From the NCBI RefSeq assembly GCF_017348835.2, contig NZ_CP071375.1: a stretch of DNA of 64,000 nt; one strand, written 5' to 3'. Of the stretch, positions 1 to 3,000 are shown in pieces. Numbering within the stretch: position 1 is the first letter of the stretch; each line of letters starts with the position of its first letter. Source of the DNA: Escherichia coli (GTDB lineage: Bacteria > Pseudomonadota > Gammaproteobacteria > Enterobacterales > Enterobacteriaceae). Made by a program: the position numbers.

Positions 1-3000
1 GACATAATATCGGCCACGGTGATGATCAATACGGATTTACCGCGTAGCAGCAGCTCGTTGCAGATTGCCGCCGCCAGATGGTTTTTACCGGTTCCTGGCT
101 TACCAGAAAAGATGAAGCTGGCGATGTTGCCGTCAAACTCTTCGACATACTGGCGCGCTTTACTTAACGCATTCATCTGCCCTTCACACTCAACGCGATA
201 GTTCTCAAAGGAGCAGTTCTGATGCAGTGGACGAATACCGGAGCGGTTAAAGGTGCGCTGCATTTTCATCGCCCGATTTTCACGTTCGAGAGCGGCGGAG
301 CGGATCGCCCCTTGTTCTTTCTGCCAGGCCAGTAGCTCTTCACCCGTTTTGAATGCAGGTTTGATATGGGCAGGCATCATTTTTTGCAGGCGTTGCATCA
401 GGTCGCCAACGTTTTTCATCGTTACCCTCTGAATCCTGGTGGAATTTGGCTGTCAGGTTCACTGACCGTATTCACATCTCGTTTCGGCAGTCCGCCGTTG
501 CTGGCACGACCGATTTGCAGGCTGCGCGCCAGTTTTTGTTGCCACTGCACATGGTGAAAGACTTTACCTTCCGCCTGCCAGTAGGCAATGAATGAGGCCA
601 GTTCTTCGGTGGTCACCGGCTCTCTTAGCGCCACGCCCCATAGCGCCGCCAGGCGGATAAAGTCGGCATCGGGTTGCCAGTCCGGATACATGGCGAATTT
701 CCCCATGGGTACAGCAACGGGAGCGGCTTGCGGTTCCTGATAGAGTTGATCGTCCAGAGCGACATCGCTTCCCGGACGCGCCAGCTTTTCTTCCAGCGCC
801 AGCAGTTCAGCCAGGCGTGCAGGCGTGACGGCATAAAACGCCGGGGCATTGTTAGCAAATACGGCAACCACACCGCCTTCAGCTTTTGCCAGAACGGTTT
901 GGTGATCGTGTACCAGGGCGTCAATACCAACGACGTCCGGGGTCAAAACTCTGGAAGACATACTGTTTCTCAAATATGGAACGATGAACGAGAAGGGAGA
1001 TAACTTTTATAGTAACACACGGAGGAGAGGAGGCTGTCTCTCATCCGTGTGCTTAAGCGAGGCAATTTTATACGCGAGGGCGCTTGCGGTACAACCATAA
1101 TCCAGGAATGGAAAGACCGATGGATAACGCACCAACAATCGATGAAGCTGTAAGAAAGTTGGTTAACAGGGTAATCATCAACGGTTCGCTGTAACCTAAC
1201 TGGCTGATTTTTACCGCCGAAATCATTGCGGTATAAGCCGATATGCCCGGGAACATAGGGATAACGGCCGCCACGGTAAACACTTTCGGATGCGCCAGAT
1301 ACCAGCGCGACCATTGAATACCAATGGTGCCGACCAGCATAGAAGCCATAAAGGTTGACCACTCAATATTCAACCCGCTGGTCATCAAGATCATTCGGGA
1401 ACCATGACCTATCGAGCCAAGCAGCGCACACCAGCGTAACGCCCGCACGGGAACGTTGAACACCATCGCAAAGCCGACCGCAGGAATGGCGGCGAGGATC
1501 ATATCCTGCGCCAACGCTAACAGAAATTCGATCACACCCATCCGCGTAGCCCCCAAATCGTCAGTGCCATCACCACGCCGACGCAGGTAGCCAGTGTCAG
1601 CAGACTGGCGATCGCCCAGCGTGCCAGTCCGGTATTGATGTGGCCTTTAAACATATCGGCGACGGCATTAATCAACGGAAAGCCCGGAACCAGCAGCAGA
1701 ACGCTGGCGGCCATCGCAATGGTGGGGGTATTGCTGAAAGTGGGGAGTTGCAAAAGCAATCCGGAAATGGTGGTGGCGGCGAAAGCGGTGAGGCAAAAGT
1801 TGATCTGTGGATGAAGATGACGTTGTGCCAGCAGCTGGCGGATATACATCGCGGTCGTACTGGCAAAGAAGGTGATGACGGCACCATCCCAGCCACCGTT
1901 ACTGAGTTTACAGAAACAGGCGCAAGAAAGGCCAACCATTAAGGCTACCAGCCATCTTGGGTAACGTAATGGCTGAATTTGGCTAAATCGTTTCTCTACG
2001 CCTTTGTAATCCAGCAGATGATGCTCCGCAAGAATCACAATGTGCTGGACTTCAGTCACCACATGCATATTAATGCCGCGATCGTGATTTTTACGTGTCG
2101 ATGTCAGGCATTGCCCATCTTTAATAGTTGTCAGCACTATGGCGTTCGAAGAGATAGAACTTTCGACACTGTCCATTCCCAGCGCCCGACCCAGTCGTGA
2201 GGAAAGCTCATCAACCAACGCGCTTTCCGCACCATGTTGCAAAAGAAATAATCCACACTGGATACAAAGCCGTGTTACGGCTCGCTGTTGCTCAGTTTGC
2301 ATAACTCGCCCTTTGTCATAGACGTGCTGCGTATTGTTCAGATAATGAGAATCCATTTGTATCATGAAGCACGGTTGTTTTGCGGTAGGTTAAGATCAAA
2401 ATTGCGCTGATTAATCCTGGTTATCGGGACAAGCTCGGTGATAAAAAGCGAATTATCTCTCGCCGCAAACAAACTATCACATGAATATTATCACTATAAT
2501 GAATTTATTGTTTTAGCCTTTACGGGTCAGGATAATAGATAGCTGGGCGCGTTTTTTAGTGTTAACAAGTTAAAATCATCAGATTTTATTGAATAAATAT
2601 TGATTGTGTGATTCCCGCATTCTGCGGGAAGGGATATCATTTAATTATAAATTAAATGAATGTGATTTCTGTTTTTCATTAAGTATTTCTAACAACTTAA
2701 TGTAGATATTTTAAATGTCTCCAGGCTATTTCACCAGGTTATCATTTGATGCTAACCTTCTGACACATGCAGTGGAGTTGTTGTGCAGCAGGAGTATGCT
2801 GATATGAAAGTGAATGCTAAGGATAATTTATTCGCTTAATCTATTAATTTGCTGGAAACATTTAAGGAATGAATATCCTGAATAAACCATCATAATTTTT
2901 AGACAGTGGATGTGGAGGAAATATGTTGCCAGGATGCTGCAAAAATGGAATTGTTATCAGTAAAATACCTGTTATGCAAGCAGGGTTAAAAGAGGTCATG

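Follow-up and report, generated by a model that had tools for sequence, protein, structure and literature searches.

Several H-NS-silenced regulatory regions of Escherichia coli, antagonised by LeuO or by BglJ-RcsB, are known, and the closest described examples are those of bgl, leuO and cas. They have AT-rich DNA upstream of the genes, are silent under laboratory conditions, and can be relieved by LeuO and activated by insertion sequences (IS) (PMC9678765, PMC6698644, PMC2646131). The spacer between yjjP and the yjjQ-bglJ operon resembles them in these respects. It differs from them in that a single spacer serves two divergent units, in that the locus belongs to the conserved core of the Enterobacteriaceae and was not acquired horizontally in recent times, and in that the spacer has no perfect LeuO core palindrome, the best match reaching 12/14 positions.

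This spacer is the published H-NS/LeuO-controlled yjjP/yjjQ-bglJ regulatory region, so the locus itself is already known. The yjjQ-bglJ operon is repressed by H-NS and activated by LeuO (PMC5025477; PMC3950696; PMC4264507), and in an hns stpA mutant it 'would otherwise be expressed' (PMC3950696). In genomic SELEX, the yjjP/yjjQ spacer bound RpoD holoenzyme and contained H-NS binding sites in vitro (PMC3946193). That yjjP is also under control of H-NS and LeuO is stated in the title of Stratmann, Madhusudan and Schnetz (2008, J Bacteriol 190:926), a paper cited by both PMC5025477 and PMC3950696. Under the conditions of Breddermann and Schnetz, LeuO activation of the native operon gave too little BglJ for closure of the feedback (PMC5025477). 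This literature supports the suggestion of an earlier note on the present DNA, made from the sequence alone, that the spacer is silenced by nucleoid proteins. The abstract of the 2008 study reportedly describes an intergenic region of 555 bp with H-NS bound at its centre, and LeuO sites are said to lie both there and across the yjjP promoter.

According to our analysis, it is very likely that the spacer is the shared regulatory region, silenced by H-NS and relieved by LeuO, of yjjP-yjjB, which encode a membrane exporter, and of yjjQ-bglJ, which encode two LuxR-type regulators, and that it has no gene of its own. Repression by H-NS and activation by LeuO are taken here from the literature, and composition, conservation pattern and absence of genes were observed in this work. 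The window, that is the whole stretch of 64,000 nucleotides that was analysed, matches E. coli PE164 (NZ_CP114128.1, reverse complement) at 100% identity over its first 50 kb. The local order, as annotated by RefSeq in PE164 and MG1655, is dnaT-yjjB-yjjP, spacer, yjjQ-bglJ and fhuF, with the following features:

Minus strand: dnaT (RefSeq annotation)
1068-1541, minus strand: yjjB (RefSeq annotation)
1532-2302, minus strand: yjjP, 256 aa, ThrE-family exporter subunit
2303-2922, no strand: yjjP/yjjQ-bglJ divergent intergenic regulatory region, 620 bp, GC 0.345
2923-3648, plus strand: yjjQ, LuxR-type regulator, first gene of the yjjQ-bglJ operon
3606-4283, plus strand: bglJ, overlapping the end of yjjQ
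Minus strand: fhuF (RefSeq annotation)

In MG1655, the product of yjjP is named 'putative succinate exporter YjjP'. A search of 5,426 complete E. coli genomes found the spacer in 5,423, at a median of one place per genome. Both regulator genes are themselves shifted toward AT (GC 0.448 for yjjQ and 0.453 for bglJ).

The earlier note had placed the spacer at 2366-2922 (557 bp), of which the right end was correct, and the left end fell 63 bp short of 2303. The 2366 boundary derives from the longest yjjP ORF (277 aa, ATG at 2365), whereas in RefSeq yjjP begins with the ATG at 2302. This ATG is kept in 61 of 63 yjjP orthologues; an upstream in-frame ATG at least 15 codons away occurs in only 13 of the 63 and is absent from the nearest Escherichia clades. 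Moreover, the Shine-Dalgarno score is -4.4 kcal/mol for the start at 2302, and the start at 2365 has no match (+0.6). Since both the Shine-Dalgarno score and the conservation among orthologues favour the yjjP start at 2302, we take the spacer to be 2303-2922, with a length of 620 bp. At the other end, 13 genera share the yjjQ Shine-Dalgarno sequence (GGAG, 2914-2917) and ATG without any change, and in a set of 53 sequences the conservation of both is at least 90%.

The conspicuous AT-richness that had first drawn attention to the spacer was confirmed, and chance fluctuation is excluded as its origin. The 557 bp at 2366-2922 are 66.1% A+T, with a GC content of 0.339 compared with 0.517 for the window; A+T amounts to 65.5-66.1% in the spacer, depending on the left end used, and to 48.3% in the window, which is the composition expected of AT-rich regions silenced by H-NS. 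Only 0.25% of all 557-bp segments of the 64-kb window are equally GC-poor, and the lowest GC content of any such segment (0.325, starting at 2475) falls inside the spacer region. The AT run quoted in the earlier note, ttaattataaattaaatgaatg, was found at 2643-2664. With 620 bp, the spacer is the longest of the 43 intergenic regions of at least 50 bp in the window, and its GC content is the fifth lowest among them, the four lower ones all being at most 210 bp long. In addition, the density of TpA steps is 0.089, compared with a window mean of 0.043, and lies in the top 0.7% of 620-bp segments. Predicted curvature, a check suggested by the earlier note, turned out to be only moderately raised (wedge model), with a spacer mean of 3.6 degrees per turn in the top 8% of 620-bp segments. 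The same model gave one local peak above the 99th percentile, of 9.3 degrees per turn at 2395. The high-affinity H-NS decamer motif TCGATAAATT, which Lang et al. are said to have described in 2007, had no match with fewer than two mismatches in the spacer. Its four two-mismatch matches there are about what AT-rich DNA would be expected to give.

Conservation was surveyed in a scan of one genome per species, which gave 80 yjjQ loci. In 52 of these, yjjP and yjjQ-bglJ are divergent neighbours, with a spacer of 387-709 bp and GC of 0.32-0.44, compared with 0.50-0.61 in the adjoining coding DNA. The genera with such a spacer include Escherichia, Citrobacter, Salmonella (diarizonae), Enterobacter, Lelliottia, Leclercia, Phytobacter, Kosakonia and Trabulsiella. 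In the four loci inspected from Klebsiella, Kluyvera, Citrobacter amalonaticus and Pseudocitrobacter, ORFs intervene between yjjP and yjjQ. From their N-terminal sequences we take these ORFs to be pobA/pobR-like. In these loci about 300 bp of AT-rich DNA still lie ahead of yjjQ. Alignment revealed conserved islands at 2353-2402, 2483-2502, 2643-2652, 2673-2716 and 2813-2832 and at the yjjQ Shine-Dalgarno sequence, while the stretch 2513-2640 could not be aligned outside Escherichia. Three of the resulting features are needed below:

2353-2402, minus strand: conserved yjjP-proximal island, TTGATC (2399 to 2394), N29, TGnTAnAA (2364 to 2357)
2463-2702, no strand: fast-evolving AT-rich centre, from strain and genus comparison
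2673-2716, no strand: second cross-genus conserved island, consensus AGTnTTnCTAA...TTTTAAT

The same partition is seen within the species. A comparison of six E. coli strains gave 54 variable sites, of which 47 fall in 2463-2702, and identity between the window and K-12 is 89% over 2481-2640 and >99% in both arms. At the same locus of K-12, yjjP, yjjQ and bglJ are 99.1-99.7% identical to those of the window, compared with 96.9% for the spacer, which measures 618 bp in MG1655 and 620 bp in the window. In K-12 (NC_000913.3) the spacer spans 4,602,859-4,603,476, and window positions convert to K-12 positions by adding 4,600,556 left of about 2510 and 4,600,554 right of about 2620. The two spacers have 19 differences, 17 of them within 2494-2616. 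The window carries a minority central haplotype of E. coli, with about 1,327 of the 5,423 genomes at least 99% identical to it. Based on the islands, the divergence and the GC pattern, we describe the spacer as two promoter arms constrained in sequence and a centre constrained in composition only.

A rapidly evolving centre that resists alignment between genera might also be expected if the AT-richness were unconstrained drift under mutational AT bias and the spacer merely carried two ordinary promoters, and several short intergenic regions of the window are indeed equally AT-rich. However, we consider this explanation very unlikely. A length of 387-709 bp and a GC content of 0.32-0.44 persist in 52 species, and the persistent length counts against drift because deletion bias is expected to shrink useless DNA. 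The AT-rich stretch ahead of yjjQ also survives the insertion of genes between yjjP and yjjQ. Moreover, repression by H-NS and in vitro binding of H-NS are documented, and IS insertions in the spacer alter expression and were selected in the gut.

Candidate promoters and protein sites were placed within this map. In the yjjP-proximal island, all 53 orthologous spacers have GATCAA (plus strand, 2394-2399), and 49 of the 53 have TGnTAnAA (2364 to 2357). The register between TTGATC and TGnTAnAA is fixed at 37 or 36 bp, whereas the distance to the yjjP ATG varies from 33 to 56, and the local peak of predicted curvature at 2395 sits in this island. TTGATC-N29-TGnTAnAA is a recurring, fixed-register element on the yjjP side, which is a new detail of modest interest. 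The island is probably the core promoter of yjjP, of the extended -10 type, together with an upstream site near -47. TTGATC as a -35 element was rejected because of its distance of 32 nt from the -10-like hexamer. In a visual comparison with the consensus sequences of FNR, CRP and sigma-54, TTGATC seemed to fit none of these. The other candidates are as follows:

2637-2659, no strand: 23-bp perfect palindrome TCATTTAATTATAAATTAAATGA, candidate protein-binding site
2651-2679, minus strand: promoter-like ATGAAA-17-TTTAAT, predicted for yjjP by Shimada et al. (PMC3946193)
2799-2827, plus strand: sigma-70-like promoter CTGATA-17-GATAAT, predicted for yjjQ by consensus scan
2858-2876, no strand: LeuO-core-like palindrome ACATTTA-AGGAA-TGAATAT, candidate site

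The palindrome at 2637-2659 overlaps the start of the AT run at 2643-2664, and its arms measure 10 bp, a length that 6 of 1,000 dinucleotide shuffles reached or surpassed. The yjjP promoter predicted by Shimada et al., mapped here onto the window, sits about 350 nt from the yjjP start. For yjjQ-bglJ, PMC3946193 proposes hexamers identical to those of our scan (CTGATA-17-GATAAT), and an AAGG..AA block in this region (2799-2827) is partly conserved. Promoter-like hexamer pairs numbered 7 in the spacer compared with 3.8 +/- 2.1 in shuffles, which is no significant enrichment. For LeuO, PMC6698644 describes the core site, and on this basis we derived the motif ATATTSA-N5-TSAATAT from the regulatory regions of cas and leuO; the near-identical palindromes recovered there were ATATTCA-N5-TGAATAT and ATATTGA-N5-TGAATAT. 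The only match to this motif with at most two mismatches in the 64 kb is the candidate at 2858-2876 (12 of 14 positions), and a three-mismatch match lies at 2597-2615; a perfect core palindrome was not found in the spacer. The LeuO-like site at 2858-2876 may serve as a lead, short of proof of binding. We infer the placement of the real promoters, of H-NS and of LeuO in window coordinates, and likewise the geometry of bridging or spreading.

Insertion sequences give a further view of the yjjP side. During evolution in the mouse gut, IS insertions recurred at -111, -185 and -256 from yjjP, and in a representative insertion clone yjjP expression was up to 2-fold higher under aerobic conditions (PMC5094792; PMC4674774). 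All three positions are upstream of the element in the yjjP-proximal island, in agreement with its reading as the yjjP promoter. The gut insertions fit the idea that the proximal yjjP promoter becomes uncoupled from the AT-rich centre. Among the matches listed in our search of E. coli genomes, IS1 is found at 2363-2375 in strain W409 and at 2820-2827 in strain SMN197SH3; the latter insertion has duplicated AGGATAAT, the predicted -10 region of yjjQ. In addition, a cat isolate has an IS1-linked deletion that extends from about 2262 in yjjP into bglJ.

The spacer holds no protein gene or structured RNA of its own. As the earlier note had stated, it contains no ORF of at least 60 aa; the longest ORFs touching it have 40, 37 and 36 aa. 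Every spacer ORF of at least 5 codons was listed with its Shine-Dalgarno score. Of the 19 spacer ORFs of at least 10 aa, none has a counterpart outside Escherichia. An Rfam scan of 1900-3400 at a permissive threshold gave only two noise matches (E-values 2.4 and 7.7). RefSeq annotates no feature within the spacer in MG1655, and under the matches listed from the search of 5,426 complete E. coli genomes the annotation shows nothing except IS1 in two strains.

If a small protein gene or a regulatory upstream ORF were concealed in the spacer, the best candidate would be a putative yjjQ leader peptide, MKVNAKDNLFA, of 11 codons at 2804-2839 with AGGAG ahead. Its Shine-Dalgarno score of -6.9 kcal/mol is comparable to that of bglJ (-6.4), and the ORF runs uninterrupted in both MG1655 and the window. 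However, it is cut to two codons (ATG AAG TGA) and its AGGAG is replaced in Escherichia sp. E1V33 and in E. whittamii, and cross-genus conservation at its Shine-Dalgarno sequence and start codon is only 0.28-0.32. The ORF also overlaps the predicted yjjQ promoter at 2799-2827, and therefore would be absent from a transcript started there. The upstream ORF at 2804-2839 was rejected on these grounds, namely truncation in sister clades, non-conservation and overlap with the predicted promoter. Considering also that no spacer ORF has an orthologous ORF outside Escherichia and that MG1655 annotates none, we regard a hidden small gene as even less probable than drift.

A small RNA or another structured RNA encoded in the spacer would be sought above all around one GC-rich hairpin:

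2612-2630, no strand: lineage-specific inverted repeat TTCCCGCA-ttc-TGCGGGAA, 8-bp-stem hairpin

This hairpin is a GC island amid AT-rich DNA and folds better than shuffles on both strands (z-scores -3.2 and -3.5). However, it is followed by no T-run on either strand and is missing from the terminator scan, and Rfam has no credible match. The hairpin is intact in the window and lacking in K-12: MG1655 and three of the four further E. coli strains in the comparison have lost its left arm, where CCC has become -TT, and the segment is absent from all other genera. In addition, the 150 nt upstream of yjjQ fold like shuffles (z = -0.21). An RNA gene is, in our judgement, the least probable of the alternatives considered. 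The hairpin was also rejected as a terminator or as a REP/BIME-type repeat, as its sequence is single-copy in the 64-kb window, lacks a T-run and is broken in most haplotypes. The terminator scan of the spacer found one terminator-like site only, on the minus strand (2464 to 2447), and this was rejected as well, its weak hairpin (-5.4 kcal/mol, z = -0.31) being no better than shuffles. Since the Rfam, annotation, ORF and hairpin checks were all negative, neither a conserved small ORF nor an sRNA accounts for the spacer, and the view that it is regulatory DNA rather than a missed gene stands.

For the shared region under H-NS and LeuO, the following course may be proposed. The high A+T and TpA content would offer a platform for binding and nucleation of H-NS, and probably also of StpA. 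H-NS would then oligomerise over the AT-rich centre into both promoter-proximal arms, and both units would be largely silent. Binding of the LysR-type regulator LeuO in the spacer would remodel or displace the H-NS complex and turn on yjjQ-bglJ. BglJ together with RcsB would in turn activate leuO, bgl and other loci, by which a positive feedback loop would be closed.

We further propose, tentatively and as a possibility that we rate at somewhat less than even, that the spacer is a modular, evolvable silencer. Its promoter arms would be conserved, and its centre would be selected for composition (A+T and TpA steps) and not for sequence, with TTGATC-N29-TGnTAnAA marking a putative regulator site of the Enterobacteriaceae. 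Several observations point in this direction. E. coli lineages differ by about 11% in the centre, compared with <1% in the arms, and between genera the centre turns over completely while GC stays at 32-44%. Moreover, repeated IS strikes on the spacer retune the expression of yjjP and yjjQ-bglJ.

The contributions of the present work to this published locus are the corrected left boundary, the finding that nothing is hidden in the spacer, and a map of cross-genus conservation. What is new is incremental: conserved promoter-proximal arms flank a centre that diverges fast and remains persistently AT-rich. The cross-genus block map could guide mutagenesis of promoters and regulator sites. As for the biology of the organism, published work has described that the spacer controls the YjjP-YjjB exporter, whose IS-driven up-regulation was repeatedly selected in the mouse gut, and that BglJ and YjjQ, which are also controlled by this spacer, feed the LeuO/RcsB network that includes bgl, leuO, flhDC and other loci.

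The longest ORF of yjjP, 277 aa with an ATG at 2365, is too long at its N-terminal end: conservation places the start at the ATG at 2302, giving a 256-aa product, and RefSeq currently annotates the gene from this codon as well. Two sequence features of the spacer between the divergent yjjP and yjjQ are as follows:

2357-2399, yjjP strand (-): bipartite element TTGATC-N29-TGnTAnAA, from comparison of orthologous spacers (n=53)
2637-2659: perfect palindrome TCATTTAATTATAAATTAAATGA, 23 bp

The register of the two halves of the bipartite element, 37 or 36 bp, was held constant in 49 of the 53 orthologous spacers, and the GATCAA half taken alone was present in all 53, while the distance from the element to the yjjP ATG varied among them from 33 to 56 nt. 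The element is probably an extended -10 promoter of yjjP with a second site upstream. The palindrome has a 7-5-7 sub-architecture (ATTTAAT-TATAA-ATTAAAT), and its length was reached in 6 of 1,000 dinucleotide shuffles.

Among E. coli strains, the spacer varies mainly in its centre (2463-2702), which holds 47 of the 54 sites variable among six strains. E. coli spacers fall into two main haplogroups, one matching the window at 99% identity or more (about 1,327 genomes) and the other at 95-99% (about 4,081 genomes). Identity of the window to K-12 is 89% over 2481-2640 and >99% in the spacer arms and flanking genes. Further along, identity to K-12 is 96.3% in fhuF (4321-5109) against 99.1-99.8% in neighbouring genes, which suggests a recombination patch.

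In the compared loci of Klebsiella, Citrobacter amalonaticus, Pseudocitrobacter and Kluyvera (L072, L011, L032 and L042; locus positions about 650-2750), yjjP and yjjQ have an ORF of some 394 aa between them. Three of these loci have a second ORF, of about 291-302 aa, after the first; this second ORF is in pieces in Kluyvera and is not among the ORFs listed for Pseudocitrobacter. From N-terminal sequences, we take the two ORFs to be pobA-like and pobR-like, respectively. All four loci retain an AT-rich stretch upstream of yjjQ, with 100-bp bins down to a GC of 0.21-0.31. The locus appears rearranged in Escherichia albertii NBRC 107761 (L009), in which the yjjP match covers only C-terminal residues 204-256, with a gap of about 50 bp to yjjQ. 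This locus gave no match to bglJ, but since the contig ends about 270 bp past yjjQ, the gene may simply be off the contig.

Spacers of natural isolates also carry IS1 (loci L085-L087), with the following events:

2363-2375: IS1 insertion in the yjjP-proximal island, natural isolate
2820-2827: IS1 insertion duplicating AGGATAAT, the predicted yjjQ -10 region, natural isolate
From about 2262: IS1-linked deletion that takes out the spacer and yjjQ and truncates bglJ at its 5' end, one strain

In mouse-gut evolution experiments, insertions of IS1, IS2 and IS5 were selected at this spacer (PMC5094792, PMC4674774), and the IS1 events of natural isolates parallel them.
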